Assembly: GCA_021774385.1 (NCBI GenBank)
Contig: JAJFJC010000261.1
Span: 2,413-66,412, forward strand
Source of the DNA: Alphaproteobacteria bacterium
Lineage (GTDB): Bacteria; Pseudomonadota; Alphaproteobacteria; UBA8366; GCA-2717185
Direction: 5' to 3'
DNA length: 64,000 nucleotides
The notes beneath the pieces are model-generated. The model saw only the letters and a list, made by a program, of their open reading frames with translations. It had not been told where the DNA came from and did no database searches. The position numbers and the translations under genes were made by a program. Positions 13,081 through 48,357 of this stretch are shown here, in pieces. Numbering within the stretch: position 1 is the first letter of the stretch; every line of letters starts with the position of its first letter.

Positions 13081-13153
13081 AAGATTCCTTTGTAATGATT
13101 TGGAACGTCAATTCAAATCCAGCTAGCTTATTGATTTATCTATCTATTCGACA

Positions 13154-13168
13154 TGGCATACCCCGTGC
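13154..13168 (+). promoter_or_regulatory. Candidate sigma-54 promoter of flgF-flgG-flgA-flgH
   Basis: The sequence TGGCATACCCCGTGC has correct GG-N10-GC spacing. It lies 44 nt upstream of the flgF ATG at 13212. Confidence 0.6.
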
Positions 13169-13211
13169 ATCCGCAATGCATAGCGCACGAAATCAACGAT
13201 TCAGGGTTTTC

Positions 13212-17510: not shown

Positions 17511-17610
17511 GACGCCAGTTTAGCGGTTATCGGCGCGGAACGGAACAACGATCATAGCTTCATGCCGGCGCAGGATTCCGCACTGCGTGGAAATCTTTGC
17601 CGAGCGTACC

Positions 17611-17623
17611 GGCACGGCTTGCC
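17611..17623. promoter_or_regulatory. Dyad GGCAC-N3-TTGCC, followed by a GGCAA half-site; candidate enhancer for the flgI promoter
   Basis: The sequence is GGCACGGCTTGCC, followed by GGCAA at 17624-17628. Its centre is about 96 bp upstream of the sigma-54 candidate at 17706. Confidence 0.35.
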
Positions 17624-17705
17624 GGCAAATGCGCCATCTCCCTTGTCTGTTTTGCATTTTCCTAATTTTATCAACCTAAATCAACCGGTTACATTATCTC
17701 TATCA

Positions 17706-17720
17706 TGGCATGCCATTCGC
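17706..17720 (+). promoter_or_regulatory. Candidate sigma-54 promoter of flgI operon
   Basis: TGGCATGCCATTCGC has correct GG-N10-GC spacing, with TCGC instead of TTGC at -12. It lies 49 nt upstream of the flgI ATG. Confidence 0.45.
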
Positions 17721-17768
17721 ATTGAAGAGGCCTGAAACCTGTCGAAACAAGACGAATAACAAACGGCT

Positions 17769-21857: not shown

Positions 21858-22811
21858 ATGACCCGCGTCGCAACGTTTGCACAAAACAGGTTTGCACTTT
21901 TCACCACGCTAAACACGCAACAGCGCCTATTCGACGCCCAAACACAAGTTGGCACCGGTCTCAAATCGCAAGACTTCGCCGGCCTTGCGCGCGAAGCAGG
22001 ACGATTGGTAAGCGTAAAGAACGAATTTGCCCGCGTTGACCAGTTTCTCGACAATATCGAGACGACTGATCGCCGGTTGGAGTTCATGGGTTTCAGCCTC
22101 GATCGCATCGAACAGGTTGGCCGGGAATTTCGAACTACGCTGTTGGGCGCCAAGAATGGTGATACGGCAAACGTAATTGGACTACCGGCACTGGCACAGG
22201 GTTTGCTCGATCAAATCGTCGACCTTCTTAACGTTCGCGACGAGAGCCGGTTTCTATTCTCCGGCGGCAATATTCGCACCAAGGCCGTGGACTTGAACAA
22301 CGGCGTCTACACTCCTCCCGTCGTTCCCCCCTTCCCCGCAGCCGCCAACACCGACTGGTATGGCGGCGACAATGTTGTTCAACGTGCCAGAATTGATGAA
22401 GGATTTGAAGTCGATTACGGCATTCGCGCCAACGACCCCGCAATCGAAAAGGTCGTCCGGGCTTTCGACTCAATATCGGAAATTACCTTTACCTCGCCGC
22501 CTTCGGCCGCCGAAATAACGGCGGTAAACGACGCGGTCGCGCTTTTAACACAAGCGCTCGACAACCCACCGGCCGGCGACACGACGATTGGCGGTCTATT
22601 TTCTCAAGCGGAGCTGCAACGCTCCATTTTGAATGATCTAAAAACCAAGCACGAGAACTTCGCCGCGTTCGCGGAAAAAAATATTGCCGAGATAGAACAG
22701 GTCAACACCGCCGAGGCAATCAGCATCCTCAACGCGGAACAGGTTACCTTGGAAGCTTCCTTCACGGTAATTGGCCGCATACAACGCGTCTCGCTCGTCA
22801 ACTTTCTTTAA
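21858..22811 (+). CDS. flgL: Hook-filament junction protein FlgL (HAP3)
   Basis: 317 aa with flagellin-like terminal helices. It follows flgK. Confidence 0.8.
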   Translation: MTRVATFAQNRFALFTTLNTQQRLFDAQTQVGTGLKSQDFAGLAREAGRLVSVKNEFARVDQFLDNIETTDRRLEFMGFSLDRIEQVGREFRTTLLGAKNGDTANVIGLPALAQGLLDQIVDLLNVRDESRFLFSGGNIRTKAVDLNNGVYTPPVVPPFPAAANTDWYGGDNVVQRARIDEGFEVDYGIRANDPAIEKVVRAFDSISEITFTSPPSAAEITAVNDAVALLTQALDNPPAGDTTIGGLFSQAELQRSILNDLKTKHENFAAFAEKNIAEIEQVNTAEAISILNAEQVTLEASFTVIGRIQRVSLVNFL

Positions 22812-22890
22812 CTCCCTTTGACACTGCGCTTCGCACTCTTGGCGTTTGGGTGATATAACGCGAACCTCTACGGTCTTCTGGAGCCAGGAA

Positions 22891-24888
22891 ATGGCGGATC
22901 CGCCGACGGAAAGCATACCGGGCGAGATACTGGTTGGCTCTCTTTCAGAGGTCCTGCACCGTGCCGCAAACCACTATAACCAGGCCGAATACGCGGCAGC
23001 CGCAGCAATTTGCCAGACCGTAGTCGCACAGGATAGCGACAATTCGGAAGCGCTGCATATCCTTGGTCATATCGCCCTGCGAACCGGAGAAACCGATACC
23101 GCAGTCGGCTATTTCACACGCACGGTTACACTCGAGCCAACCGACCCCCGATATAGCCGAAGTTTCGCGGCTTCTCTGGAAATATCAGGCCGCACTAATC
23201 AAGCAATGCACGCCTGGTCTCAGTATATCACGCTTAATGCCGAAGATGCGGATGCGCATTTCCATCTTGCGCGACTCCTTTCCGACAGCGGCGACCATGG
23301 GTTGGCGGCAACTAGGCTTGCCCGTGCGACTCAACTTGAGCCGACCAACCTGGATATACGTTTCGCCCTCTCGGTTTGCCTATATAAGTGTAATGAACTG
23401 TCTGAATCGATTGCGAACTTTGAAGCGCTCCTGAAAATTCGGCCGGACTGGGCAGCTTGCCATAGCGGTTTATCAGCAGCCCTACGCCAAGATCAACAAA
23501 TTGAACGCGCAATTTCCCATGCGGGCTGGGCGGTTTCCCTGCAGCCTGAGGCCTCCGAAGCGCACAACAATCTCGGTTTGGCGTATTTTTCCGCCCAGCG
23601 CACGGACGATACCGTGCGATCTCTCGAACGCGCGCGAGAATTGTCGCCTGACGACGCCGAGGTTTTGAACAATCTAGGTGTCGCAACCGCTCATATAGGG
23701 GACCGAGATCGCGCCAAAGCGTATTATGACCAGGCGTTAAAGTTACGGCCGGGTTGGGCGGAAGCACTCCTCAATCTCGCTAATATTTCGCGCCAGGAGA
23801 ATTTGCTCGAACTTGCCGTGGAGACCTATCAAGAAGCACTGCGCGCCCAACCGGACGACTATCGTATCCTTGGTAGTCTGGCGCTAACGTTCCTTAATTT
23901 GAACGATCCCCAAAACGCCATTGCCAGTTACGAACAGGCACTAGTTCTTGCACCCGGGAACCCGGAATTACGGAAGGGCCTCGGCATCGCACAGTTGCTT
24001 GACGGCCAATTCCAACCCGGCTGGCGCAACTACGAGGCGCGCCTTCTTTGTGGTTTCCAACGCAATTTCAACGTACCGCGCTGGGATGGCGAAGACCTAA
24101 ACGGAGGCAGGCTTCTCATTCATTCCGAACAAGGCTTCGGCGATACGATACAATTTTGTCGTTACTTGCCGCGGGTCGCCGACAAGGCAAACGCGAAATC
24201 CATAATTTTCGAGACACAGCGCCCTCTTCTTCGGCTACTCGCCACCGTCGAGGGAGTCGATGAAGTCATTGCCCGGGGCGATGCCTTACCCGAAATCGAT
24301 CGACATGTTCCGCTTCTAAGTTTGCCAGCGATTTTCGAGACGGATTTCGAGACTATTCCAGGTCAACATCCCTACATCGCCGCGAACGAGCATGATCACC
24401 CAGATTGGCGACCTAGGCTCGCCGGTGACAAGCCCCGTATCGGTATCGTTTGGAAAGGAAATCCACGACGACAGGATGACGATAAGCGTTCCTGTCCGGT
24501 CGCCGCTTTCGAACCCATTTTAAAACTGTCCAATTACCAATTTTTCAGTTTGCAAATCGACGCCGATTTCAGTGAAACATCATGGTTCGGCAAACATGGT
24601 GTCGCCGATCTTGCAAACAATATCAAAGACTTCTCGGATACAGCGGCGATAATCGCGGAACTAGACCTCGTCATCAGCGTCGACACCGCGACAGCACATT
24701 TAGCCGGTGCGTTGGGAAAGCCTGTTTGGGTTCTTCTTGGTCACGCCGCGGATTGGCGTTACCTAACGGCGAGAGACGATTCGCCCTGGTATCCCAGCAT
24801 GCGATTGTTTCGACAAAGTAATAGAGACAATTGGCGCGAACTCGCCAATCAGGTTTCAAGGACGCTTAATCAATCGTTCGATTTCTAA
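22891..24888 (+). CDS. Bipartite TPR protein with C-terminal GT9-like (heptosyltransferase-fold) glycosyltransferase domain
   Basis: I prefer the ATG at 22891 over the track's TTG at 22846. There are about 10 TPR-like repeats. The C-terminal motifs GFGDTIQFCRYLP and DTAAIIAELDLVISVDTATAHLAGALGKPVWVLL are typical of GT9-fold enzymes. Confidence 0.7.
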   Translation: MADPPTESIPGEILVGSLSEVLHRAANHYNQAEYAAAAAICQTVVAQDSDNSEALHILGHIALRTGETDTAVGYFTRTVTLEPTDPRYSRSFAASLEISGRTNQAMHAWSQYITLNAEDADAHFHLARLLSDSGDHGLAATRLARATQLEPTNLDIRFALSVCLYKCNELSESIANFEALLKIRPDWAACHSGLSAALRQDQQIERAISHAGWAVSLQPEASEAHNNLGLAYFSAQRTDDTVRSLERARELSPDDAEVLNNLGVATAHIGDRDRAKAYYDQALKLRPGWAEALLNLANISRQENLLELAVETYQEALRAQPDDYRILGSLALTFLNLNDPQNAIASYEQALVLAPGNPELRKGLGIAQLLDGQFQPGWRNYEARLLCGFQRNFNVPRWDGEDLNGGRLLIHSEQGFGDTIQFCRYLPRVADKANAKSIIFETQRPLLRLLATVEGVDEVIARGDALPEIDRHVPLLSLPAIFETDFETIPGQHPYIAANEHDHPDWRPRLAGDKPRIGIVWKGNPRRQDDDKRSCPVAAFEPILKLSNYQFFSLQIDADFSETSWFGKHGVADLANNIKDFSDTAAIIAELDLVISVDTATAHLAGALGKPVWVLLGHAADWRYLTARDDSPWYPSMRLFRQSNRDNWRELANQVSRTLNQSFDF

Positions 24889-25334: not shown

Positions 25335-25713
25335 TTTTTAGAACCTCATCTTCATATTTCATAAGCTTACGGCATTTTTTTAACGCACTGTATAGATCAC
25401 CTCGAATTACGTTCTCGCCAATTTCAAGAATTATCGGTGAGGCACTCGGCACAGCCTTAATGAAATCTCTCGTAAAGGAGTTAAATTTCTCTTGATAAAA
25501 AGCAGTATTGACCGGAAACAAGTAGATCATCTGAACCGCGAAATATACGCGTTTCGCCGGAGAGCTCGCCTGTTCTTCCGTCATGATGTCACGTTCGCGC
25601 AACACGCTTGCCTTATTCTCCAAGACAAGCTCGCTTTTCTGCCCGCCATTAACGATAACCGCTTGGTTAATGACGATTTTTTCACCCGGCTTTAAAGCCA
25701 ACTTCAAGGGCAT
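25318..25713 (-). CDS. flbT: Flagellin translational repressor FlbT
   Basis: I prefer the start at 25713, which has a GAGGAGGG Shine-Dalgarno just upstream. The track ORF starts 24 nt further upstream, at 25737. The product begins MPLKLALKPGEKIVINQAVIVNGGQKSELVLENKASVLRERDIM, the FlbT N-terminal signature. Confidence 0.88.
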   Translation of the reverse strand: MPLKLALKPGEKIVINQAVIVNGGQKSELVLENKASVLRERDIMTEEQASSPAKRVYFAVQMIYLFPVNTAFYQEKFNSFTRDFIKAVPSASPIILEIGENVIRGDLYSALKKCRKLMKYEDEVLKNVANA

Positions 25714-25841
25714 GGTTTCACCCTCCTCTACTGACATATCGAATTCTTCAATTCGCCACCCACGGTGCGGTCAGCATATGCCGACCATTCGGGCGATGCC
25801 ATCGCGTGCAATTTAGCCCATGACGACACATAAATATCTGT

Positions 25842-25856
25842 GCACATAGTGTGCCA
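25842..25856 (-). promoter_or_regulatory. Candidate sigma-54 promoter of flbT-flaF
   Basis: The minus strand reads TGGCACACTATGTGC, with GG-N10-GC spacing. It lies about 130 nt upstream of the flbT start. Confidence 0.5.
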
Positions 25857-25880
25857 CAGCTTCGAAAAACAAACAGAAAT

Positions 25881-25918
25881 AAAACAAAAAAAGGGCGGCG
25901 AAAAATTCGCCGCCCCCC
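25881..25918 (-). terminator. Rho-independent terminator downstream of flagellin 1
   Basis: The minus-strand RNA reads GGGCGGCGAA-UUU-UUCGCCGCCC followed by UUUUUUUGUUUU. This is a 10-bp GC-rich stem plus a U-tract, about 25 nt after the flagellin stop. Confidence 0.85.
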
Positions 25919-25942
25919 CCTTGTAGAGTGTCTTGTGCTGGC

Positions 25943-26770
25943 TTAACCGAACAGTGCGAGAATCGAACGTTCGCTCTGACTTGCCAATGCCAAGGAGTTA
26001 ATGCCCAACTGCTGTCTTGTTTGAAGAGCCAGCAGATTGGCGCTTTCCTCGTTAAGGTCGGCCTGCGTCAGCTTGGTTGCACCACCTTCCAGGGTATTAA
26101 CCAGGTCAGCCGTGAAATCGAACCGCGCGGTAAGGACCGACGCATTGGAGCCCAAGGTGGACGCCGTTGTCCGTAGGGTCGTCAACGCCGAATTGACCGC
26201 GGTAATCGCTGCATCAATGTTCGTATCGGCGGCGAAATCGCCCTGAGCAACGTCGATATTGATGCCAGCGGCGGCGGTCGTGGTATCGACACCCGAAATT
26301 GTCAACGCGCTCGAACCGTCCTCGTTGAAGTTGACGGTCAAGTTATCGGGTGTCGTCTTCAAGAGATTTGTACCGGCGAAACTGGTATCGTTGGTAATCG
26401 CATCGATTTGGCTAAGAAGCGCATTGAACTGAACGCCAAGTGAAGAGCGCTCGTTCGTGTCACTCGTCGCCTTCGCCGTGATCGCCAAACCTTTGGCTTG
26501 TTCCGCCAGTTCGGTAATAGCGTCGATACCGGCAATAGCGGCCTCGACCGCACTAATACCCTGATCGATATCGGATTTCAGACCATCCAAATCACTCGCC
26601 CGGGAAGTCAAGGATTGTGACGCAAAAAATGCAGATGCGTCATCAAGCGCTGAGTTCACGCGAAGGCCAGTAGCTAGTCTGTTCTGAGTAGAGTCAATTT
26701 GGCGTTGTGTAAGCTGAAGTGTCAGCAGATTGGAACGAACAGCGCCGGATAGTGAAATACTGTCAGCCAT
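25943..26770 (-). CDS. Flagellin (short alphaproteobacterial type, 275 aa), copy 1
   Basis: The N-terminus is SGAVRSNLLTLQLTQRQIDSTQNRLATGLRVNSALDDASAFFASQSL. The C-terminus is ADLNEESANLLALQTRQQLGINSLALASQSERSILALFG. Both are conserved flagellin D0/D1 helices. Confidence 0.92.
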   Translation of the reverse strand: MADSISLSGAVRSNLLTLQLTQRQIDSTQNRLATGLRVNSALDDASAFFASQSLTSRASDLDGLKSDIDQGISAVEAAIAGIDAITELAEQAKGLAITAKATSDTNERSSLGVQFNALLSQIDAITNDTSFAGTNLLKTTPDNLTVNFNEDGSSALTISGVDTTTAAAGINIDVAQGDFAADTNIDAAITAVNSALTTLRTTASTLGSNASVLTARFDFTADLVNTLEGGATKLTQADLNEESANLLALQTRQQLGINSLALASQSERSILALFG

Positions 26771-26921
26771 TTAATTTCCCTTTCTAGGAATAAACAGGTT
26801 GCATTCTACAACCTTATGTTTCAATCGTAATAACGACACATAATTTACGTATCGTGGATGACGTTCTGTCATCCTTCCGCCTACCTTGTCGGCGGATCAT
26901 TAGGACCGACATGATAGGCAA

Positions 26922-26936
26922 GCAAACTATGTGCCA
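26922..26936 (-). promoter_or_regulatory. Sigma-54 promoter of flagellin 1 (perfect consensus)
   Basis: The minus strand reads TGGCACATAGTTTGC (TGGCAC-N5-TTGC). It lies about 150 nt upstream of the start at 26770, implying a leader of about 140 nt. Confidence 0.75.
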
Positions 26937-27031
26937 CATGGAACTAGCACATGATCTCCATGTGTAGCCTTGGACACAAATTATCCTCGAAAAGTAAACA
27001 AAAGGTTTATGGCAAGAATTTCCGGCCGGGC

Positions 27032-27046
27032 CGGCAAATTTTGCCG
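27032..27046. promoter_or_regulatory. Perfect dyad CGGCAAA-T-TTTGCCG (GGCAA-N3-TTGCC), candidate bEBP/FlbD enhancer for flagellin 1
   Basis: It is a 7-bp inverted repeat. Its centre is about 110 bp upstream of the sigma-54 promoter at 26922-26936. Confidence 0.5.
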
Positions 27047-27089
27047 AGCCCGATGGAAAATCTTGCCGACTCTCTAGGCGGTCGTGATC

Positions 27090-27917
27090 TTAACCGAAGA
27101 GGTTCAGGATAGCTCTTTCACTTTGCGCCGCCAGCGAAAGTGAGTTCAAACCCAGTTGTTGACGGGTCTGTAACGATAGCAAATTCGCGCTTTCCTCATT
27201 AAGGTCGGCAAGCGTCAGTTTGCCGGCACCTTCGTCCAACGTATTGACAAGGTCCTCGGTGAAATCCAGGCGGGTTTGCAGCACCGAATTGTTCGAACCC
27301 AACGTCGCCGCGGTCGTGCGCAATGTGGTCAACGCATTGCGTGTCGCTGTCAAAGCCAAATCGATGTTCGTGTCGGCGGCAAAATCACCGATTGCCCCCG
27401 CGACGTTGATACCAGTCGCGGCCGTTGTCGAATCAATACCAAGAATGGTGATCTGGCTCGAAGAATCCTCATTGAAATCCACGACCAAGTTATCGGGCGT
27501 GGCCTGAATAATATTCTGCCCGTTGTAGCTTGAGTCGTTGGAGAGATTATCGATCTGTAGAAGCAAAGCGTTGAACTGCACACCAAGCGAAGATCGTTCG
27601 TTGGTATCGCCGGTCGCCTTTGCGGTAATCGCAATACCTTGGGCCTGCTCGATAAGCTGCGTGATCGACTCAATACCATTGACCGCCGCCGTCAAAGCGC
27701 TAATAGATTGATCTATATTATCCTTAAGACGGTTTAGATCGTCTGCCCGAAAACTTAACGCCCGTGCCGCGAAGAATGCGGCAGCGTCGTCGAGCGCGGA
27801 ATTAACCTTCAAGCCCGTGGCGAGACGCACCTGTGTCCGGTCGCCGAGGTCAATTGTCCGTTGCAGCGTAAGCAAATTGCTTCGGATCGCAGCCGAAAGC
27901 GCAATTTTTTCCGCCAT
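27090..27917 (-). CDS. Flagellin (275 aa), copy 2, diverged tandem paralogue of copy 1
   Basis: It has the same length and architecture as copy 1. The shared block is ITAKATGDTNERSSLGVQFNALLLQID (ITAKATSDTNERSSLGVQFNALLSQID in copy 1). The C-terminus is ADLNEESANLLSLQTRQQLGLNSLSLAAQSERAILNLFG. Confidence 0.92.
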   Translation of the reverse strand: MAEKIALSAAIRSNLLTLQRTIDLGDRTQVRLATGLKVNSALDDAAAFFAARALSFRADDLNRLKDNIDQSISALTAAVNGIESITQLIEQAQGIAITAKATGDTNERSSLGVQFNALLLQIDNLSNDSSYNGQNIIQATPDNLVVDFNEDSSSQITILGIDSTTAATGINVAGAIGDFAADTNIDLALTATRNALTTLRTTAATLGSNNSVLQTRLDFTEDLVNTLDEGAGKLTLADLNEESANLLSLQTRQQLGLNSLSLAAQSERAILNLFG

Positions 27918-28027
27918 TTCCTTACTCCTATTCTGGATGCGCGCAATTTGCGCGTTCTTTCAATCTTTCCGAAGCGAGCCCCGCCATAACGTCGTCGGAT
28001 CCGCCAATGTGCTTCAATCCAGAATTG

Positions 28028-28042
28028 GCAATGCTCATGCCA
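28028..28042 (-). promoter_or_regulatory. Sigma-54 promoter of flagellin 2
   Basis: The minus strand reads TGGCATGAGCATTGC, with GG-N10-GC spacing and a TTGC -12 element. It lies about 110 nt upstream of the start at 27917. Confidence 0.7.
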
Positions 28043-28130
28043 AGCGGCAAAACCTATTTAACCTATTGGTAAACCTAGTATTTCTTTGAAGTCGCGCTTC
28101 TATAAACCGGGTCAATGCCCAGTTCTGCCG

Positions 28131-28143
28131 GGTAAGTATTGCC
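28131..28143. promoter_or_regulatory. Dyad GGTAA-N3-TTGCC, candidate enhancer for flagellin 2
   Basis: GGTAAGTATTGCC has one mismatch to GGCAA-N3-TTGCC. Its centre is about 102 bp upstream of the sigma-54 promoter at 28028-28042, similar to the flagellin 1 offset. Confidence 0.4.
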
Positions 28144-28158
28144 CCGAATCGGCAGTTC

Positions 28159-29265
28159 TTACCCGCTCGTGGCACTCACGACGGCATTACGCACATCGCG
28201 AATTTCCGCAACGCCGATATCCTGGGAAAACGGTAACCCAATGACGGAAGTGGCGAGGGATTCCGTAACGGGAAGAGGCAAGCGGGGCATGTTCTTGAAA
28301 GCCGCCATCCTATGGCATCCCGCTCCCCACCATTGACGTGTCGCGATACCCGCATTTGACAGTACCGACATGGCCCGTTCGGCATGCCCTTCGGTCAATT
28401 GTATATTGAAAGTCGAGTGCACCTGTGATGCAAAAAAACCAGGAGCCGGCCGAACCTTAGGCACCTCGACAAATGCTTCCCGGTATCGCGCGCCCGCCGC
28501 CGCAAAAGCCGCCCGGGTCTCCGGCCAACGATCCAGCGCGGCCATACCAACCGCCGCCGTGTATTCGCTTATTTTCGCGTTCAAACCATCGAGTTCAGCC
28601 TCCCGGCGCGCCGCGAAACCAAAATTCGATAAAGCCCGAATTCGGGCGGAGAGCACCTTATCCCGGCTTCCAACCAACGCCCCTTCGCCTATGCCAAGAA
28701 CCTTTGTGGCGTGCAGGCTAATCACAACCGGTGCATCGCCGAATTGCGCACCGTCAAACGCCGCCGCCGCATCAACGACAACAGGGATCCCGGTATCCTG
28801 ACGAAACGTCTCCCAGCCCTCGATATCCACCGGCGCACCAAACGCCGAAATCGCCATAACCGCGCCGACCGGCCCGCCTATCTCTTTGAGTGCTCGTCGC
28901 GCGATGTCTGGCGTCAGCATCCATGTCGCGGCATCGACATCGACGAACAAAGGCTGCATCCCGGCCCATCGCGCGGCATGCGCGCTCGCCGCGAAGGTCC
29001 ATGACGGCATAACGCAATAGGCACCAGATTCAGGTTCATAGGCCCTCAGGCTAAGCATCAATCCCATCGTGCCACTTGCCACGCAAACCATTGTCTCCAT
29101 ACTTAAATCCAACGATTTTGCAAGGCGCTCCTCAAATGCGTTAACCATTGGTCCGAAATTTGAATACCAGCGTGCCTGGTCAATCCGCCGCAAGTACGGC
29201 AACAATGCGTCAGCCGTCGGCAACAACGGTCGCATTAGCGGTATTCGCGGATTTTGCGTTGTCAT
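28159..29265 (-). CDS. DegT/DnrJ/EryC1/StrS-family PLP-dependent (sugar) aminotransferase
   Basis: 368 aa with the family pattern SGTMGLMLSL. The PLP-lysine context is VISLHATKVLGIGEGALV. Confidence 0.8.
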   Translation of the reverse strand: MTTQNPRIPLMRPLLPTADALLPYLRRIDQARWYSNFGPMVNAFEERLAKSLDLSMETMVCVASGTMGLMLSLRAYEPESGAYCVMPSWTFAASAHAARWAGMQPLFVDVDAATWMLTPDIARRALKEIGGPVGAVMAISAFGAPVDIEGWETFRQDTGIPVVVDAAAAFDGAQFGDAPVVISLHATKVLGIGEGALVGSRDKVLSARIRALSNFGFAARREAELDGLNAKISEYTAAVGMAALDRWPETRAAFAAAGARYREAFVEVPKVRPAPGFFASQVHSTFNIQLTEGHAERAMSVLSNAGIATRQWWGAGCHRMAAFKNMPRLPLPVTESLATSVIGLPFSQDIGVAEIRDVRNAVVSATSG

Positions 29266-33589: not shown

Positions 33590-34623
33590 TCGAGAGCGTC
33601 CATGAAAGCCGTCGCGACAAATGCCATGTCGTCGCCATTATACCGTTGATCGCAGGGCAACAGCAGCAGTTCCCGGCTTAGCGCGTGAGCCGCGGGAAAC
33701 ATTGAGCGCTCGGAGGGCAGATCCGGCCAATAACGCGCGGGGAAAATTCGATTGGCGCGTAGCCTCTCCCAAACCGCATCCCGGTTCCTGATTCGAACAG
33801 GAAACCCCATGGGAACAAATTCTGGCTCTAAATCTGGAAATAACGCGAATTCCTGCAGCTTTCCCGCGAGAAACGTATAATTTTCACACCGCCGCCGGCT
33901 TGCCGATGCCGCATCGATACCAGCCAGCAACCGCCGGGTTATGTCAGAAATCGGCTCATCGGAGACGGTCATTTCCGCCTCGACTTGACGATAGGCATCA
34001 TACCATCGCCGATTATCGCGCTCTTCAGCATCATCACGCCGCATCACGCGCGGGCGTTCCCGGTTTTTCGAGGTGTGTTCGGGGTGGGCAACCGGCTTCA
34101 AATGTCCCCCTGAATGGACCATGATCCCGCCATCGGGAACGCCGAATAGTTTTCGGGGGCTATAAAGAACCCAATTTGCCCAAGGTTCGGCCGCGGGCAT
34201 CAACGCTTGCGCACGATCCTCGACCCACAAAACCTCGTGCGTTTGCGCGACGAAGGATCGAAACATCTGTTCCGGCTGACAGCCGAAATAATCCACCGCG
34301 AGGACACAATCTCCCTCACGAAGCGACCGTGAAAGGACATCGGTATCGGGTGATAGCCGATTAATCAGGGGGTAAAAAAGGACCTCTCGTTCCTCCCCTG
34401 CCGCGCTAACCAGTTCGCGGCATATAAATTCCGGCAAAAATAGGCGCTTTATCTCGAATTGTTGCAGTAAGTGAGCCAGCGCACTGCGAGCATTGGCGAA
34501 AAACCAGGCGTTCGTCTCTTCGACATCCCATAATGAAAGTACATTTTCGGAGATATTTGGGCTTAGGGATTCCAACGGCAGGAAACCGCCGATAGCGCGC
34601 CTATTTACGGCTGGCGTCGACAT
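33586..34623 (-). CDS. DegT-like PLP-dependent transferase (second aminotransferase-fold enzyme), 345 aa
   Basis: I chose the ATG at 34623, which gives MSTPAVNRRAIGG... This start shares one base with the upstream stop (TAATG). The track ORF extends to 34749, inside the upstream gene. The Lys context is WVLYSPRKLFGVPDGGIMV. Confidence 0.55.
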   Translation of the reverse strand: MSTPAVNRRAIGGFLPLESLSPNISENVLSLWDVEETNAWFFANARSALAHLLQQFEIKRLFLPEFICRELVSAAGEEREVLFYPLINRLSPDTDVLSRSLREGDCVLAVDYFGCQPEQMFRSFVAQTHEVLWVEDRAQALMPAAEPWANWVLYSPRKLFGVPDGGIMVHSGGHLKPVAHPEHTSKNRERPRVMRRDDAEERDNRRWYDAYRQVEAEMTVSDEPISDITRRLLAGIDAASASRRRCENYTFLAGKLQEFALFPDLEPEFVPMGFPVRIRNRDAVWERLRANRIFPARYWPDLPSERSMFPAAHALSRELLLLPCDQRYNGDDMAFVATAFMDALE

Positions 34624-36887
34624 TATGAAGCATCCGCCGATCGTGGGCCGGCCCTTAAAAGGAATTGCGCGAAGCTGTCCGCGGCCGCATGGTCTTCGAA
34701 CAAACGGTCGCACCGGTCTTGGATTCGTTTTCCCAATTTCGAGCGCCATGCCCGGTTAGTGCCCAATCTCAATGCGATATCAATGTAGGATTCGCTTGTT
34801 GCCGCGATCAATTCTGATATTTCCAAGCGCTCATATAACGCCATTGTCGAGCGCCCGCGCGCGAAGCGGCTTGGAAAGGTAACAATCGGCACGCCCATCG
34901 CGAGCCCTTGATAAGCGGTGTTCCCTCCACTAAACGGCCAGGTATCAAGAAGAACATCCGTCACACATAGAATATTTAAGAAATTAGTTAAACTTTGCCT
35001 TTTTAATATTTGAACTCTCTCAATATTTTCGCCAAATTGTTTTGCCCATCTTTGCTTTAAAAGGTCTGACCAATGAGGTTCCGGCCCCTCGAATACGATG
35101 ATTGACGCCTTAGGGTCCCTCTTGAGGATCTCGGCAAAAGCCGAATCCATATCTGGATGAATTTTAAAGAGGCTTTGAGGACACACATAAAGCGTCGCGT
35201 TTTCCGGCAACCCAAACGCATCACGCAGCTTTAGGGGATACGGCCGCACTGGGCGGTCATAGTCGACCAACACACCGTCCAGCGCGGCAAGCTCTTCGCT
35301 ATAATACGCCGACGCATCTGGTTGCTCCAACGGCGCGCTGCTAATGAAATAGTCAATTGCTGGTATTCCCGTAGTATCGGGATGTCCGTTCGTCACACAT
35401 TGCACCGGCGCCAACCTCGAAAAGGCAAGAAAATAGGTCAACGGCTCCATGCCGATATCCGTGTATACCAGAACATCGAGCTTTTCGCGCGCAAGTCGTT
35501 CCCTTGCTTGAATTAGGCCGTTCGGTAGGATCACGGCATTGTCCACATCTTCCGCAATCGCGCGCCAGACAGGATCGTTATCGTCGAGAAATGTAAAAGC
35601 CGAGACGTGGATTTTCTCGCGCGATAGATGCCGCAAAATTCGGTGATAACACCACCCTACCGCATGATTCCGAAGGTAACGCGAAACAAAACCAACTTTT
35701 ATTTTCCGATTAGTCCGTCGTTCGGGCTTCTTGCAGTGCGGCGCCACAAACTCAAGCGTGGGACATGCCTTGGCATAGAGACGTGCAATTTTGCCGTTCA
35801 AAACACGATTATCTTCATCGTGATAGGACAGATGAAAATTAGTGATACCGACCTCGTTTATGGGGTCGTCGATATGTATTTTCTCCGCCAGCAACGCGTC
35901 GATTGCTGATTCCGTTTTTTCGCGCGCTTCCGCCATGGCGTGGATGGAAGAAGGGATGACAGGCAGAAGCGTCGCTAGCCGTATCCGCACACCCGGGTCT
36001 GGGCGAACCTGCAAAGCGGCACGATAGCTCGATGCAGCATCTTCATAGCGTCCTTGGCGCCGTAAAACATTACCAAGATTCCCGTACGCTTCAGGGGATT
36101 CTGGGTTTAATGTAATTAATCGGCGAAGAGTTGCTTCGGCAACAGCCGTATTCCCATCCGCAAGAAATGCAACAGCCATATTATTTAATGTTTCTTGATT
36201 GTTAGGATCAATATTTAAAGAAACACTATAATGTTCCAAAGCTTCGGAAAGCGCACCGCTTTCCATCCTAACCACGCCCAAATTGTTCCGGACGGTAATA
36301 TCCGAGGGAAAAGCGCTGACGAGTGATTGATATATTTCCGTCGCTCGCTTCAGGTCGCCGCGACGGCGGAAAATTTGCGCCAGACCAAGTTGTGCCGTGC
36401 GGTGCGAGGGCTGAGATTTGAGGGCCGATACATAATGCGCCTTTGCGCCGCTTATGTCGTTACGATCGAAAAGCGAATTACCGAGATTACAATGGGCATC
36501 GAGTAATTCAGGGTCGATCGCCAGCGCCTCTTGAAACACCTTCTCCGCATAGGCGGTATCGCCAATTGCACGGGCGGAAACACCGAGATTATTGAGAAAC
36601 GATGCATTTCGAGGCGCGCATGCGACGGCTTTCTCGAAAAAAACAAAAGCATCATGATGATGGCCCCGGCCGGCCGCGATGACGCCAAGCATATGGAGTG
36701 CATCGGCGTGATGCGGTTCGACTGACAGTATTTCGCGATATTTCACCCAAGCTTCGTCGATACGTCCCGCACGATGATCGCGAACAGCCTCCGCGTATTG
36801 AAATTTCGTTTGATCACGTTCGATCATGCTATTCCCACCAAACAAGGCGCGGTCGAAGCGAATTGCGTAGCTCCCTCTATGCAACAC
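34623..36887 (-). CDS. Bipartite TPR protein with C-terminal GT41-like (O-GlcNAc-transferase/SPY-like) domain; candidate flagellin glycosyltransferase
   Basis: 754 aa with about 9 TPR repeats in the N-terminal half. The C-terminal half has KVGFVSRYLRNHAVGW, VLVYTDIGMEPLTYFLAFSRLAPVQCVTNGHPDTTGIPAIDYFISS and DTWPFSGGNTAYQGLAMGVPIVT, typical of GT41-type domains. Confidence 0.7.
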   Translation of the reverse strand: MLHRGSYAIRFDRALFGGNSMIERDQTKFQYAEAVRDHRAGRIDEAWVKYREILSVEPHHADALHMLGVIAAGRGHHHDAFVFFEKAVACAPRNASFLNNLGVSARAIGDTAYAEKVFQEALAIDPELLDAHCNLGNSLFDRNDISGAKAHYVSALKSQPSHRTAQLGLAQIFRRRGDLKRATEIYQSLVSAFPSDITVRNNLGVVRMESGALSEALEHYSVSLNIDPNNQETLNNMAVAFLADGNTAVAEATLRRLITLNPESPEAYGNLGNVLRRQGRYEDAASSYRAALQVRPDPGVRIRLATLLPVIPSSIHAMAEAREKTESAIDALLAEKIHIDDPINEVGITNFHLSYHDEDNRVLNGKIARLYAKACPTLEFVAPHCKKPERRTNRKIKVGFVSRYLRNHAVGWCYHRILRHLSREKIHVSAFTFLDDNDPVWRAIAEDVDNAVILPNGLIQARERLAREKLDVLVYTDIGMEPLTYFLAFSRLAPVQCVTNGHPDTTGIPAIDYFISSAPLEQPDASAYYSEELAALDGVLVDYDRPVRPYPLKLRDAFGLPENATLYVCPQSLFKIHPDMDSAFAEILKRDPKASIIVFEGPEPHWSDLLKQRWAKQFGENIERVQILKRQSLTNFLNILCVTDVLLDTWPFSGGNTAYQGLAMGVPIVTFPSRFARGRSTMALYERLEISELIAATSESYIDIALRLGTNRAWRSKLGKRIQDRCDRLFEDHAAADSFAQFLLRAGPRSADAS

Positions 36888-36922
36888 CCATGCCCAAATT
36901 AAGAAGGCTCCCGTTACCGCCC

Positions 36923-36935
36923 GGCAATAATTGCC
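36923..36935. promoter_or_regulatory. Perfect dyad GGCAA-TAA-TTGCC in the divergent GT41 / flaG intergenic region
   Basis: GGCAATAATTGCC starts 36 bp upstream of the GT41-like gene start codon (36887). Confidence 0.4.
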
Positions 36936-36952
36936 TCAATTTCGACGTGCTC

Positions 36953-36965
36953 GGCAATTTCTGCC
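36953..36965. promoter_or_regulatory. Dyad GGCAA-TTT-CTGCC (one mismatch), second site of the same cluster
   Basis: The site is CGGCAATTTCTGCCG. Further CGGCAA half-sites have their GGCAA cores at 36984-36988 and 37039-37043. Confidence 0.35.
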
Positions 36966-37119
36966 GAAATCCCGCCTGTAACCGGCAAACATTTCCATCG
37001 TCAAATACCGAAAAGTGCCGCACAATTCCTGATAGATCGGCAAACCGGCTCGTTGCTATTTAAATGGTAGGCTCCGATAGAGAAATTCTAGTCATTTTCA
37101 AAGCAAAATTTCCACCTTG

Positions 37120-37134
37120 TTAACAGTACGTTAA
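37120..37134. promoter_or_regulatory. Perfect TTAA-N7-TTAA (CtrA-box type) site
   Basis: TTAACAGTACGTTAA lies in the 589-bp divergent intergenic region. It is about 110 bp upstream of the flaG sigma-54 promoter and about 235 bp upstream of the GT41-like gene start. Confidence 0.5.
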
Positions 37135-37238
37135 TGTTTCTTTGCACAATATTAACAAGTGTGGTTGTTACGACTTCGTCTTGCCAGAGAGATATTCAAC
37201 ACAGCAAGATTCGAGGAACGAACCGCCACGGCGGAATT

Positions 37239-37253
37239 TGGCACTTAGTTTGC
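37239..37253 (+). promoter_or_regulatory. Sigma-54 promoter (perfect consensus) upstream of flaG
   Basis: TGGCACTTAGTTTGC differs from the flagellin 1 promoter by one base in the spacer. It lies about 225 nt upstream of the flaG ATG. Confidence 0.7.
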
Positions 37254-37476
37254 ATGTCGTTAGTTGGATTTCGAATTCCTGGTCGTCAGGCCACTTCGAA
37301 ATCTAGGAACATAAGATGGTTTGGTTTTCATTTTCTTGCACAGTGGCGACAGAATACGTCGTGCGGGGAAATCGGTGATAAAGGCGAGTTAGAATTTTCG
37401 TCGATTGACACCGGCCCATTGAGACCAAATCAACTGTTCGCGCATTTGACAGAACGCCGATTGCGGGAGATATGAG

Positions 37477-37917
37477 ATGGAATTCGGTTCACTCGGCCTT
37501 GGGTCCCAATCCCAATCCGCGTCAAACCAGACAGGTACGTCCAGTTCGGTACAGACGCCCACTAATGGAACAAACCCAGAAAATACCGTAACACCCGTCG
37601 AAAGCGGAACCGCGTCGTTAAACGATCGGCGGCAGGATCTACTTGGTCAAGACGATCCCCAAGCAAGCCAGGAAAATGGCGAGGCTCCGGACGCCGCAGA
37701 AGACTTACAATTGACCAGCAGGCGCACCACGCTGAACTTCGACAGTGAACAAAATCGCATATTCTTGGAAGTCGTCGATACCTCAACCGAAGAGGTTATC
37801 GAACAGATACCCTCCGATAAGTTTGTTGAGTTCGTCGCCAATGCCCTTGATACCGGCGAAGATTCCAACCTTGAGGAGAATGAAGACAATTCGTCGCAAG
37901 ACGCCCCTCCCGTTTGA
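37477..37917 (+). CDS. flaG: FlaG-family flagellar protein
   Basis: 146 aa. The core LNFDSEQNRIFLEVVDTSTEEVIEQIPSDKFVEF matches the FlaG signature (the pattern vvkVvD..TgEviRqiP). Confidence 0.75.
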   Translation: MEFGSLGLGSQSQSASNQTGTSSSVQTPTNGTNPENTVTPVESGTASLNDRRQDLLGQDDPQASQENGEAPDAAEDLQLTSRRTTLNFDSEQNRIFLEVVDTSTEEVIEQIPSDKFVEFVANALDTGEDSNLEENEDNSSQDAPPV

Positions 37918-38127
37918 TGTGAAATCTGTTTCATCGAATTGAGCATCTCTTCGGCGCGTGTCTCTGGATAGCGCGGCGTAAGTACGTAATTTTTTCCGGT
38001 GTGCCCCTGCCACACTGGAAAAATATGCCGCAATGTGGATGAATAAATTGCCCCGGGATCCGTTCCGAGGACCTGGCGGTTTTTATAAATTACGTATTTT
38101 CAATAACTTAAATCCATTTCGAGCCTT

Positions 38128-38142
38128 TGGCCCGTTGCTTGC
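38128..38142 (+). promoter_or_regulatory. Candidate sigma-54 promoter of fliK-flgD-flgE
   Basis: TGGCCCGTTGCTTGC has GG-N10-GC spacing and a TTGC -12 element. It lies 35 nt upstream of the fliK ATG. Confidence 0.6.
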
Positions 38143-38176
38143 TGTGTTGGTTTCAACGCAATAGCGAGGAAGCACC

Positions 38177-39658
38177 ATGCAGGTATCGAGCGTGGACGTC
38201 CCCCAAACACCGGGCACGGAAAACCAATCGGCAAAGATTTCGGAGCCATCCGGGAGTGTGTTCGCCACGTTGCTTAAAAGCATCGTCGGCCAGAATGGGG
38301 CCCGGTTGCGTCTCGAAGCCGGCACGAGCCTGGGGCAATCGATCGTCCCCGATGCCGTCCGGCCACGCACGGACGAATATGAATCTAAACCGGAACCGTC
38401 GGACGATGCGGTCGAGGCTAGCACAGACCAAACTGACGATATTAGCGACAGCCCAGAAGCATCCGAGCAGCCGGTTCAATCCGATAATTCGAGGGACGCC
38501 GAACAAACATTAGCAATAATCGACGAAACGTTAGAGATCCCTACCGAAACGTTAGACCGCCCCACCACGGACACGGCGACGTTGGCCTTGGCTACGGTTC
38601 CAGCGGCACTAACCACATCAAATGGACAAGGACAAACGGGGCCTGTTCAACAAAATGTCGGTTCAACTCAGGCGGTAGCGCAATCATCCACGCCAGAACA
38701 AACCGCCCCGGTAGCCGCCGCACCTCTGGCCTCGAAAGAAAGTCGGAGCGAAACGCAACGCTTGAGCGCCCAAGTCACCGATACACCTCAAGAACTGATA
38801 TCACGCCCCAGCAACACACTGGCCGCCGTGTCAGCGGTTGCCTCGCAAACCGAAAAACAGCGCGCCGTTGGAAATACCGTCGTAGCCGACCCTGAACGGA
38901 GTACGGAAAGTTCCGGCAACTTACTGTTGAACAGTGCGGCAAAGAAGGTCACGGCAAACGGAAACAACATCCGAGGCAATGCGGCGCAGGCGGCACCCAC
39001 GACGGCCGCGGGGACCGAACCCTCCGCTACCCCCAGCAGTCAATCGCTTTCATTTCCAGCTTCGATGGCGGCGGCGCAACCTTCGGCCGCCGCAACAAAT
39101 CGCACGGCTATGGGCCTTCCCACTCGAAGCCCTGAAATGGCGCCCCTCAATTCCATCAGCGGTGGTTCGACCGCAGGGTCGGCAGCAGCGGGAACCGCTC
39201 GAATTGCCACACCGCCGCCACCTGCGCCGATCCCCCTACGTGTACTGACCGAACAAATCGCGGTGCAGATTCAGAAATCCGTTGGCCAAGGTCTCGATCG
39301 AATAAAAATTCAGCTCAAACCCGCGGAACTCGGTCGCGTCGAAATTAAGCTCGATGTGATGCAGGATGGCCGCGTGGCCGCGTCGGTCATCGTCGACCGG
39401 CCGGAAACACTGGAAATGTTGCAGCGAGACGCACGGGGCCTGCAACAAGCCTTGCAGGACGCCGGCCTGAAATCCGACGGCGCGAATTTAAGCTTTAATC
39501 TCAGCGGCCGTGGTGCCTCAGATGGTCAGCAAAGCGCGGAGGGCAACGGCGGACCGAACGGCAACCAGAACGAAAATGCGGACAGCGAGTTAGCCGCGAT
39601 TGAATCCGAAACACTCCATCGACGCGCCAGCGACAGCATGATCGACGTAGAAGTCTGA
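38177..39658 (+). CDS. fliK: Hook-length control protein FliK
   Basis: 493 aa with a long Pro/Ala/Ser/Thr-rich ruler region. The C-terminal Flg_hook-type domain reads DRIKIQLKPAELGRVEIKLDVMQDGRVAASVIVDRPETLEMLQRDARGLQQALQDAG. Confidence 0.85.
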   Translation: MQVSSVDVPQTPGTENQSAKISEPSGSVFATLLKSIVGQNGARLRLEAGTSLGQSIVPDAVRPRTDEYESKPEPSDDAVEASTDQTDDISDSPEASEQPVQSDNSRDAEQTLAIIDETLEIPTETLDRPTTDTATLALATVPAALTTSNGQGQTGPVQQNVGSTQAVAQSSTPEQTAPVAAAPLASKESRSETQRLSAQVTDTPQELISRPSNTLAAVSAVASQTEKQRAVGNTVVADPERSTESSGNLLLNSAAKKVTANGNNIRGNAAQAAPTTAAGTEPSATPSSQSLSFPASMAAAQPSAAATNRTAMGLPTRSPEMAPLNSISGGSTAGSAAAGTARIATPPPPAPIPLRVLTEQIAVQIQKSVGQGLDRIKIQLKPAELGRVEIKLDVMQDGRVAASVIVDRPETLEMLQRDARGLQQALQDAGLKSDGANLSFNLSGRGASDGQQSAEGNGGPNGNQNENADSELAAIESETLHRRASDSMIDVEV

Positions 39659-42494: not shown

Positions 42495-42507
42495 GGCAAT
42501 TTTTGCC
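42495..42507. promoter_or_regulatory. Perfect dyad GGCAA-TTT-TTGCC upstream of fliF
   Basis: GGCAATTTTTGCC has its centre about 188 bp upstream of the fliF GTG. It is immediately followed by TTAACTTCACTTTTA, a TTAA-N7-TTTA near-CtrA box. Confidence 0.4.
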
Positions 42508-42688
42508 GCGTTTTAACTTCACTTTTACTAAAATGTCGTGTAACTTGCGTTGGAATGATTCGTGCAACGCAAATAATTTGCCTGCGATTAATAGTGAGCA
42601 AATATGGAACGAACCCTCAGTCGACCAAAGCGATACACGCAGTCAGCAAGCGTCTTATGCCAAAAAGTGGCCAATGAGGTAAATTAAC

Positions 42689-46980: not shown

Positions 46981-48357
46981 ATGAGACTACTAATCGTCGG
47001 CACCCTGGAAGGCCATATCAGCACCGCTGGAAAAATTGCAATTTCCCGAGGTGCGAAAGTCAGCCATGTCAATTCGATTGAGGAAGCGCTTGCTTCCGTT
47101 CGCTCCGGTCAAGGCGCGGAATTACTACTCGTTGATGTCAAACTCAATATCGGCGACCTAGTAACGCGTCTCGCCAGCGAGCGCATCAATGTACCCGTCG
47201 TATCGTGCGGAATCGGAACCAGCGCAGAGGCCGCGGTGGAAGCGATCCGCCAAGGCGCGCGGGAATATATACCACTCCCCCCCGACCCTGAACTGATCGC
47301 CGCCGTCCTGGAGGCCGTGGCCGCGGAAAGCAATACGATCATACATCGCGATCCGGCAATGAAAGCGGTCATTGCGCTGGCTGACCAAATCGCGCCATCC
47401 GAAGCTTCGATCCTAATCACGGGCGAATCGGGCACCGGCAAGGAATTGATGGCGCGCCATATCCACGTGAAAAGCAACAGGTCGTCAAAGGCTTTCGTTG
47501 CGGTAAATTGCGCGGCAATACCGGAGAACCTTCTTGAATCGGAATTATTCGGACACGAAAAAGGCGCTTTTACAGGAGCCGTGGCGAGGCGGATTGGTAA
47601 GTTCGAGGAAGCCGATGGTGGCACACTACTGCTTGACGAGATCAGTGAGCTGCACCCCCGCCTTCAAGCCAAACTTCTACGCGCTGTCCAAGAACGCGAA
47701 ATAGATCGAGTCGGCGGTCTAAAGCCGATCAAGATCGATGTCAGGCTCCTCGCGACATCAAACCGAAATCTTCAGGATGCAGTGAAAAACGGTGATTTTC
47801 GTGAAGATCTGTATTTTCGCCTGAATGTCGTGAATATCGGCATCCCGGCATTGAGAAACCGGCCGCAGGACATTGAAATTCTAGCCAATTTCTTTGCCGA
47901 CAAATATGCCGAGGCAAATGGCGTCGCTAGGAAACCCATAGGACAGGATACGTTGAACACGCTCCAACGACACGGCTGGCCAGGCAATGTCCGAGAGCTT
48001 GAAAACACCATGCATCGTTCCGTTCTGCTTTCACAGGGCACCGAACTCGCCATGGATGCGACGATACTTCAATTGTCTGGCATCAGCGTCGGGGAACCGG
48101 CGGCGCCGTCGTTCGCGCCAACAACACCAGCCGATTCGAATAGTACCAATGGCGAAGCCGACTTCGTGCGGCGCACCGTCGCCGAGGTCGAACGCGACCT
48201 CATCATTGACACGTTGCAACATTGCCTCGGCAACAGAACCCATGCCGCGAATATTTTAGGCATTTCAATCAGAACGCTTAGAAACAAACTAAAGCTTTAC
48301 GCCGAGAATGGCCTCGCGGTACCCATGCCCGGTGAAGTGGAGTCAACGGCACCTTAG
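46981..48357 (+). CDS. flbD: Sigma-54-dependent transcriptional activator FlbD (degenerate receiver + AAA+ + Fis-type HTH)
   Basis: 458 aa. Walker A is GESGTGKE, the GAFTGA loop is EKGAFTGAV, and the C-terminal HTH is NRTHAANILGISIRTLRNKL. The N-terminal domain (MRLLIVGTLEG...AKVSHV...REYIPLPPDPELIAAVLEAV) lacks the acidic pair and the conserved Lys. It resembles Caulobacter FlbD. Confidence 0.85.
   Translation: MRLLIVGTLEGHISTAGKIAISRGAKVSHVNSIEEALASVRSGQGAELLLVDVKLNIGDLVTRLASERINVPVVSCGIGTSAEAAVEAIRQGAREYIPLPPDPELIAAVLEAVAAESNTIIHRDPAMKAVIALADQIAPSEASILITGESGTGKELMARHIHVKSNRSSKAFVAVNCAAIPENLLESELFGHEKGAFTGAVARRIGKFEEADGGTLLLDEISELHPRLQAKLLRAVQEREIDRVGGLKPIKIDVRLLATSNRNLQDAVKNGDFREDLYFRLNVVNIGIPALRNRPQDIEILANFFADKYAEANGVARKPIGQDTLNTLQRHGWPGNVRELENTMHRSVLLSQGTELAMDATILQLSGISVGEPAAPSFAPTTPADSNSTNGEADFVRRTVAEVERDLIIDTLQHCLGNRTHAANILGISIRTLRNKLKLYAENGLAVPMPGEVESTAP

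Follow-up and report, generated by a model that had tools for sequence, protein, structure and literature searches.

The window, a stretch of 64,000 nucleotides analysed here at its full length, is a large flagellar gene cluster of an uncultured alphaproteobacterium, and within it we focus on the intergenic region at 36828-37476 (649 bp) that separates a glycosyltransferase gene on the minus strand from flaG on the plus strand. Gene order around this region runs from a TPR and GT41 glycosyltransferase gene (-) into flaG, fliK, flgD, flgE, fliF and flbD (+), and elsewhere in the window are genes for two flagellins, FlbT, FlaF and FliX, with flbT and flaF adjoining the flagellin genes. As the window holds the genes of FlbD, FliX, FlbT and FlaF, its regulatory toolkit is that of Caulobacter, with FlbD and FliX serving transcription and FlbT and FlaF serving flagellin translation. 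The genes on which the argument leans are:

34623-36827, minus strand: TPR and GT41 gene (Pfam TPR repeats and Glyco_transf_41), FlmG-like by architecture, first gene of the flagellin-modification operon
37477-37917, plus strand: flaG (Pfam FlaG; aligned with 12 relatives)
46981-48357, plus strand: FlbD, scoring 748 bits with the NCBIfam FlbD equivalog model, whose cut-off is 750 bits
17067-17510: FliX, the FlbD partner gene, in the same window

Our interpretation draws on a comparison of about 60 flaG loci, collected by an FlgE-based genome scan and a metagenome scan with a FlaG alignment; relatives that need to be told apart carry L numbers (for example L081-L088 and L121-L123), and W denotes the window. 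The nearest relative in the FlgE genome scan is a contig of a metagenome-assembled genome (MAG) with an FlgE identity of 85%, and further relatives are labelled Rhodospirillaceae, "Rickettsiales" and Alphaproteobacteria MAGs. In the closest subclade (L081, L082, L085, L087 and L088), as in the window, the glycosyltransferase gene and flaG are direct divergent neighbours, and protein conservation with these relatives begins at ATG 36827, ahead of which stands the ribosome-binding site GGTGGGAA. This refutes the start at GTG 36887 assumed in a preliminary description of this DNA and corrects the limits of the control region, given there as 589 bp at 36888-37476, to those stated above; the motifs listed in that description were all located where it had placed them. 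Between the two start codons the DNA carries the following elements:

36879-36895, minus strand: sigma-54-type promoter GGGCATGGGTGTTGCAT, directed leftward, between the GT41 start and dyad 1
36923-36935: dyad 1 GGCAATAATTGCC, perfect and kept in close relatives, a putative FlbD/ftr enhancer site
36952-36966: dyad 2 CGGCAATTTCTGCCG, 30 bp from dyad 1, a putative FlbD/ftr site
36984-36996: dyad 3 GGCAAACATTTCC, one mismatch, 31 bp from dyad 2, a putative FlbD/ftr site
37038-37043, plus strand: fourth CGGCAA hexamer, with no dyad partner and unconserved in the alignment of relatives
37120-37134: TTAA-N7-TTAA box TTAACAGTACGTTAA, a perfect CtrA-type full site between the putative enhancer and the flaG promoter
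37239-37255, plus strand: flaG sigma-54 promoter TGGCACTTAGTTTGCAT, exact consensus, with its core TGGCACTTAGTTTGC at 37239-37253

The dyads of the control region belong to a family that recurs throughout the flagellar cluster. With up to one mismatch, GGCAA-N3-TTGCC occurs 13 times in the window against 2.97 expected, a count reached by none of 100 shuffles, and the copies cluster at the flagellar promoters of flagellin 1, flagellin 2, flgI/fliX, flgF, flaG and fliF. Outside the control region they are found at:

27011/27033/27055: flagellin-1 dyads, spaced 22 bp and lying 75-131 bp before the sigma-54 promoter of flagellin 1
28131: dyad upstream of flagellin 2
17589/17611: dyads in the fliX-flgI intergenic region
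13068: dyad upstream of flgF
42495: dyad upstream of fliF

The likeness drawn earlier to the motif at 27011 upstream of flagellin 1 thus holds, the two being members of the same dyad family. Essentially all flaG loci with enough upstream sequence have a dyad pair or triplet, 30-37 bp apart, before the sigma-54 promoter, and these dyads are kept even where the glycosyltransferase gene is 3.5-4 kb distant and another gene (a PhyH dioxygenase or a methyltransferase) precedes flaG, which argues that the dyads belong to the flaG promoter. Between fliX and flgI (17589-17722) two dyads are followed by a perfect consensus site for integration host factor (IHF), AATCAACCGGTTA at 17679-17691, and then by the sigma-54 promoter TGGCATGCCATTCGCAT at 17706-17722. 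Upstream of fliF, both in the window (42495-42527) and in L001 (12288-12320), a perfect dyad GGCAATTTTTGCC is followed after 5 bp by a CtrA-like box TTAACTTCACTTTTA; most of the 30 relatives compared have a single perfect dyad about 190-220 bp upstream of fliF, and in several of them a CtrA-like TTAAC-N6-TTYA follows it 5 bp on. This placement of the same dyad family beside a CtrA-like box, in the window and in relatives, matches that of Caulobacter PfliF, a CtrA-activated class II promoter that FlbD represses at ftr4 (PMC3930126; PMC4083442), and the match supports the dyads as putative FlbD sites; the flaG/GT41 dyads are unlike PfliF in being triple, phased and flanked by sigma-54 promoters. 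Since their distribution mirrors the Caulobacter FlbD regulon, in which FlbD activates late genes and represses fliF through ftr sites (PMC3930126; PMC4083442), the dyads are best read as FlbD (ftr-type) enhancer sites, and the FlbD input proposed in the preliminary description gains support from their recurrence at flagellar promoters and their conservation upstream of flaG. The four CGGCAA motifs counted in that description are all present, two of them with GGCAA cores at 36984-36988 and 37039-37043, and three lie in conserved dyads; the fourth is a lone, unconserved copy of a hexamer that occurs 134 times in the window, and for these reasons we rejected it as a half-site and consider it probably a chance occurrence. 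As a point of annotation, the flgF open reading frame (ORF) as listed (start 13041) is probably too long, the family-model alignments beginning at residue 58, and within the extension (13041-13212) lie a sigma-54-type promoter at 13154-13170 and the dyad at 13068.

On either side of the dyads lies a sigma-54 promoter. The exact motif TGGCAC-N5-TTGC occurs four times in the window against 0.16 expected (none of 100 shuffles reaches four), and an equivalent of the flaG promoter was detected in 49 of 59 flaG loci, so that the consensus sigma-54 promoter claimed earlier for flaG is confirmed. Across the family the layout consists of 2-3 dyads, a TGGCAY-N5-TTGCAT promoter 100-320 bp downstream and then flaG, with 177-240 bp between the start of the promoter motif and the flaG ATG. 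Transcription predicted to start near 37265 would yield a flaG leader of about 212 nt, close to the length of about 215 nt first suggested, and leader length is conserved in about 50 related loci; relative to this predicted start the dyad centres lie at about -275 to -336. Beyond the putative enhancer a second, oppositely oriented sigma-54 promoter is present at 36879-36895. With at most one mismatch, the 17-nt motif TGGCAYN5TTGCWT has nine matches in the window against 1.38 expected, with eight, including this one, in front of a gene of the flagellar cluster and the ninth (22192) within an ORF. Its predicted start near 36869 would leave a leader of about 42 nt before the GT41 ATG and would place the dyad centres at about -60, -90 and -121, an ordinary enhancer distance. 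The dyads lie 96-140 bp from the revised GT41 start codon rather than 36-80 bp from it, and it had been left open whether they repress or activate the gene; because a sigma-54-type promoter lies between the dyads and the GT41 start, a shared enhancer and activation are likely and operator-type repression is less so, and the dyads probably activate both flaG and GT41. In distant relatives no CtrA, sigma-54 or dyad elements were found upstream of GT41.

The identity of the TTAA-N7-TTAA box, which precedes the -24 element of the flaG sigma-54 promoter by 105 bp, is less straightforward. The box in W matches the CtrA full site at 8 of 8 positions and the IHF core WATCAANNNNTTR at 7 of 9, and a shift by one base brings the two consensus sequences into agreement at every specified position but one (TTAA versus the WAT of WATCAA). 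Exact copies number two in the window against 0.69 expected, with 14 of 100 shuffles reaching two, and copies with one mismatch number 21 against 17.7 expected; the box is not significant alone, and its support comes from conservation in close relatives. It is perfect, at a fixed offset of -118 to -122 from the flaG promoter and with a varying spacer, in W, L081, L082 and L083; L087 has a perfect box displaced by 27 bp to -145 together with a one-mismatch box at -117, L085 has one mismatch, the sequence in L086 is degenerate, and L084 and the wider family have no box. Across the wider family this interval is occupied by an IHF-consensus site (tTWTCAATnnnTTAt), always oriented with the promoter, whose offset of -48, -86 or -105 depends on the subgroup. 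The IHF core is matched at 8 of 9 positions in L081, L083 and L086, which read TAACAATACGTT(A/G), and at 8-9 of 9 in the wider family, in the same orientation. IHF-like sites between the dyads and the promoter lie in promoter orientation 31 times against 12 in the opposite one, and such sites also occur at PflgI, PfliK and the flagellin-2 promoter in the window. The position of the box thus favours an architectural, IHF-type role for it, whereas its sequence in W favours CtrA.

The competing explanation would make the box a genuine CtrA site that adds a cell-cycle or master-regulator input, either driving a sigma-70-type GT41 promoter or modulating looping to the flaG promoter. The full site is perfect, its TTAA halves are kept around a variable spacer in W, L081, L082, L083 and L087 (CAGTACG, CAATACG, CAGGATG, CGCATTC), the perfect box is confined to the subclade in which GT41 adjoins flaG, and CtrA-like boxes accompany the fliF promoter in the clade. 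Caulobacter PflmG, which is bound and activated by CtrA (PMC7591256), offers a parallel in that a CtrA-type box lies upstream of a TPR and glycosyltransferase flagellin-modification gene; it differs in that the proximal promoter here looks sigma-54/FlbD-dependent and the box lies about 250 bp upstream of the predicted start. A leftward TTAACA-18-GAAAAT hexamer pair overlaps the box in W, yet activating CtrA sites lie near the promoter -35 (PMC6180460), and the best sigma-70-type hexamer pairs around the box point in different directions among relatives, in which no consistent sigma-70-type promoter tied to the box was found. The motif is also not enriched in the window, the slot is occupied by IHF-consensus rather than CtrA sites in L086, L084 and the wider family, and the GT41 gene of distant relatives has no CtrA box upstream. 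On this evidence we regard a CtrA site as possible but rather unlikely, and the perfect CtrA-type box of the preliminary description stands as a sequence while the CtrA input attributed to it is not established, the box being unenriched, set ahead of a sigma-54 promoter and not over the -35 of a consistent sigma-70-type one, and its slot holding IHF-consensus sites elsewhere. The near-coincidence of the two consensus sequences calls more generally for caution when a sequence near a sigma-54 promoter is taken for a CtrA box. Besides this box the window has one further perfect TTAA-N7-TTAA, at 9986-10000, which stands 81-95 bp ahead of a minus-strand cheY-like gene (9519-9905), with two one-mismatch boxes close by at 9848 and 9910.

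Downstream of the predicted start, the flaG leader contains a series of RNA hairpins:

37264-37306, plus strand: hairpin at the 5' end of the predicted flaG transcript, stem ATTTCGAA...TTCGAAAT at 37268-37302
37345-37360, plus strand: mid-leader hairpin GGCG-ACAGAAUA-CGUC, with AGAA in the loop
37383-37402, plus strand: second mid-leader hairpin GGCGAG-UUAGAAUU-UUCGUC, with AGAA in the loop
37437-37469, plus strand: hairpin sequestering the Shine-Dalgarno (SD) sequence, apical loop C-AGAAC-G at 37450-37456

The last of these, which is absent from the preliminary description, is the best-supported and most conserved RNA element of the leader. The 3' base of its stem pairs with part of the SD sequence GGGAG (37465-37469), its loop C-AGAAN-G is invariant across 34 diverse flaG leaders, and its stems covary. 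In a MAFFT alignment 86% of cells are paired, compared with 34-51% in slid controls; compensatory changes affect 8 of 13 pairs, and none of 500 shuffles reaches the observed covariation, a result that a model-based alignment reproduces. The covariance model R1 scores 37.7 bits at flaG of the window, and there as in each of 55 related loci a single significant hit falls at flaG, with no significant hit elsewhere; as a finder of the motif upstream of other genes it was set aside, only flaG being significant. Rfam returned no hit with E <= 1 for 36700-38300, and only sub-threshold, chance-level hits for 25600-28200. The 5'-terminal hairpin noted earlier is present and folds with -18.3 kcal/mol (z = -3.3), more stably than any of 200 shuffles, and a hairpin of differing sequence occupies the same place in L081, L082, L083 and L084, with none in L085, L086 and L087. 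Equivalents of the mid-leader hairpin at 37345-37360, with its AGAA loop, occur at about -108 to -134 in many relatives, and AGAA-loop hairpins number 1.17 per flaG leader across the family, as against 0.28 in shuffles, clustering at about -25 and at -108 to -134. We rejected the idea that the sequence codes for protein: apart from the stretch of the conserved RNA hairpin, neither a 113-aa ORF (37134-37475) nor a 121-aa ORF (36698-37063) has homologous sequence in relatives, and a search for a conserved small ORF in the flaG leaders of relatives found none.

Hairpins of similar design recur in the flagellin leaders. Among the 13 AGAAN-loop hairpins in the window, four sit in late flagellar leaders, three of them in that of flagellin 1 and one beside the flbT ATG. 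The flagellin-1 leader (85 nt; window 26770-26925, minus strand) carries AGAAN loops near 26867, 26807 and 26785, the last of which covers the SD sequence, and in relatives (near 2850-3003 of L121, L122 and L123) the three hairpins are kept through compensatory changes, fully in the first two and in part in L123. The flagellin-2 leader retains CAUCC-AGAAY-AGGAG at its SD sequence; the AGAA-loop hairpin beside flbT is unconserved in L121-L123. These features suggest that late flagellar mRNAs may share an RNA operator. In Caulobacter, FlbT and FlaF are said to control the translation of flagellin mRNA through its 5' untranslated region, a finding reportedly due to Anderson and Gober in 2000 (as cited in PMC3930126). 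We know of no AGAA-loop motif described for FlbT, and to our knowledge flaG is not a known FlbT target. The window resembles that system in that flbT and flaF are present beside the flagellins and in that late flagellar mRNAs have structured leaders with a stem-loop at the ribosome-binding site, the last hairpin lying over the SD sequence; the link to FlbT/FlaF is drawn here from this shared hairpin design only. A second analogy is offered by CsrA-FliW, which controls flagellin mRNA, for example Campylobacter flaA, through GGA-loop hairpins of which one overlaps the SD sequence (PMC4894983). Here too several short hairpins with a fixed loop stand in a flagellar mRNA leader and the last occludes the SD sequence, but the loop is AGAA rather than GGA and no CsrA or FliW gene was seen in the window, so that the likeness is one of design, not of membership.

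Taken together, these elements probably constitute a Caulobacter-type late-flagellar (class III/IV) control region, comprising a shared FlbD enhancer, divergent sigma-54 promoters, the box and a regulated flaG leader for which FlbT/FlaF is a candidate. The three dyads, 30-31 bp apart or about three helical turns, would form the enhancer at which FlbD, the sigma-54 activator whose gene lies 10 kb downstream, acts. Placed between two divergent sigma-54 promoters, this enhancer would act on the left promoter (36879-36895) to drive the FlmG-like glycosyltransferase operon and on the right promoter (37239-37255) to drive flaG. The TTAA box, at about -138 and roughly midway, would most likely be an IHF-type DNA-bending site that brings FlbD to the distant flaG promoter, with a CtrA site as the alternative. 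The 5' hairpin of the resulting leader (about 212 nt) probably makes the mRNA more stable, and the last hairpin (37437-37469), with the SD sequence partly paired and the AGAAN loop exposed, may keep translation off until a factor acts. Because the flagellin-1 leader has three conserved AGAAN-loop hairpins, one of them over its SD sequence, the FlbT/FlaF flagellin translational regulator system appears the likely factor. The earlier proposal that a single region couples CtrA and FlbD inputs to flaG and to the flagellin-modification operon is thus supported as regards FlbD, sigma-54 and the long leader, with the role of CtrA unproven.

The simplest reading would be one FlbD enhancer serving two divergent sigma-54 promoters, which is the design of Caulobacter flaN/flbG. 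Mullin and Newton (in 1989 and 1993) and Gober and Shapiro (in 1990 and 1992) are said to have described at the divergent flaN/flbG (hook operon) locus of Caulobacter crescentus sigma-54 promoters, ftr enhancers and IHF sites. Common to both loci are divergent sigma-54 promoters around an inverted-repeat enhancer cluster, FlbD and FliX in the same cluster, an A/T-rich element resembling a bending site between enhancer and promoter, and a hook operon next door. The locus described here departs from flaN/flbG in that the partners are flaG and the flagellin glycosyltransferase operon while the hook operon has its own promoter, in that the enhancer is unusually far (about -255 to -336) from the flaG promoter, and in that the bending-site slot holds a perfect CtrA-type sequence in this subclade.

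Several points weigh against this interpretation. The presence, recurrence, conservation and covariation of the sequence elements are observed directly, whereas the proteins bound, the direction of the effects and the transcription starts are things we infer. The leftward promoter is found in only three of five loci with GT41 adjacent (kept in L081 and L082, not found in L087 and L085), it has a non-consensus G at its first position, and dyad 1 lies only 27 bp from its -24 element, which is close for an enhancer. The dyads are called ftr-type by their distribution and not by comparison with the published Caulobacter ftr consensus, and the box in W is a poorer match to IHF (7 of 9) than to CtrA (8 of 8). 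On the RNA side, R1 matches the flagellin-1 leader weakly and only in part, short of significance (7.5 bits, E = 7), and the strict C-AGAAN-G hairpin, considered as a window-wide motif, is not enriched (4 against 2.1), the clustering in late flagellar leaders appearing with the looser AGAA-loop definition alone. The link between the flaG and flagellin leaders thus rests on clustering and conservation rather than on a single shared model, and FlbT as the binder of the hairpins is something that we purely infer.

These same RNA results, together with the lack of conservation of the flbT-adjacent hairpin in L121-L123, lend weight to the alternative that the leader hairpins are generic structures involved in mRNA stability, folding, or recognition as a small-RNA or thermosensor target, not tied to FlbT/FlaF, with AGAA loops arising from purine-rich composition near ribosome-binding sites. 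We hold this to be possible but rather unlikely, for the CAGAA-G loop is invariant in 34 diverse flaG leaders whose stems covary, some 100 nt separate the AGAA-loop hairpins of the mid-leader from any ribosome-binding site, and the 85-nt flagellin-1 leader holds a cluster of three such hairpins that are kept through compensatory changes; a loop that does not vary points to a partner that recognises its sequence. Our tentative proposal, which we put forward as a possibility, is that AGAA(N)-loop hairpins of which the last occludes the SD sequence form an operator motif, not described before, that the late flagellar mRNAs of flaG and flagellin carry across a broad clade of uncultured Alphaproteobacteria, read by FlbT/FlaF or by an unknown RNA-binding protein. 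As for the dyads, it is improbable that they serve mainly as an operator through which bound FlbD represses the glycosyltransferase operon, as at fliF in Caulobacter, and activates flaG only: Caulobacter FlbD does both activate and repress through ftr sites (PMC3930126; PMC4083442), a single dyad adjoins a CtrA-like box at fliF here and a leftward transcript from the TTAA box would read through the dyads, but a sigma-54-type promoter lies directly leftward and downstream of the dyads at a normal enhancer distance, no conserved sigma-70-type promoter was found upstream of them, and three phased dyads resemble the activating clusters at flagellin promoters whereas the repressive fliF site is a single dyad.

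If the shared FlbD enhancer is read correctly, it suggests that the glycosyltransferase operon has moved from the early (CtrA) tier, where it stands in Caulobacter, to the late (FlbD/sigma-54) tier by sharing the flaG enhancer. The Caulobacter FlbD/FliX/FlbT hierarchy would thereby be extended to an uncultured marine alphaproteobacterial lineage in which the cis-elements can be read from sequence. The DNA control region would follow the well-known Caulobacter class III/IV design, and the AGAA-loop leader hairpins may be the new part. The covarying hairpin over the SD sequence offers a concrete, mutable RNA element for studying how translation of FlaG, and perhaps of flagellin, is coupled to assembly. 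Should the operator motif proposed above prove real, FlaG would count as a flagellin-like late product whose translation is gated, and a sequence definition open to testing would become available for the RNA target of FlbT-type regulators, which has long been unknown.

The hook operon downstream of flaG has elements of its own:

38128-38144, plus strand: sigma-54 promoter TGGCCCGTTGCTTGCTG of fliK-flgD-flgE, kept in 8 of 8 close relatives
38098-38110: IHF-like site TTTCAATAACTTA, upstream of the fliK promoter
38017-38029: weak dyad, upstream of the fliK promoter

This promoter fits the Caulobacter RpoN motif GGCNC-N4-CTTGC (PMC4287350), and because fliK-flgD-flgE have their own conserved sigma-54 promoter they need not rely on that of flaG, contrary to the suggestion that the control region might also drive fliK-flgDE. 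A near-consensus sigma-54 site TGGCACACTATGTGC lies upstream of flbT (25842-25856, minus strand) and is identical in L121 and L122, and flbT-flaF may thus have a late promoter of their own.

The nearest genome, L001, was uninformative as a comparison for the region, since its hook region contains neither flaG nor the promoter; the fliK ORF beside flgD is truncated there to 287 aa, and neither flaG nor a sigma-54 promoter precedes it. L001 (WLWY01000003.1) and L082 (WLWD01000057.1), both 1,067,509 bp long, are apparently one contig, in which case about 150 kb separate the GT41/flaG module and the hook operon. The sigma-54 site at 22192, an exact match, falls inside ORF 21858-22811, which has no family match and whose position after flgK suggests flgL. 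It lies 640 bp upstream of a gene for a second large TPR protein, TPR-only and of 680 aa, without a GT41 domain (22846-24888), which is convergent with flaF and keeps its position in L121-L123.

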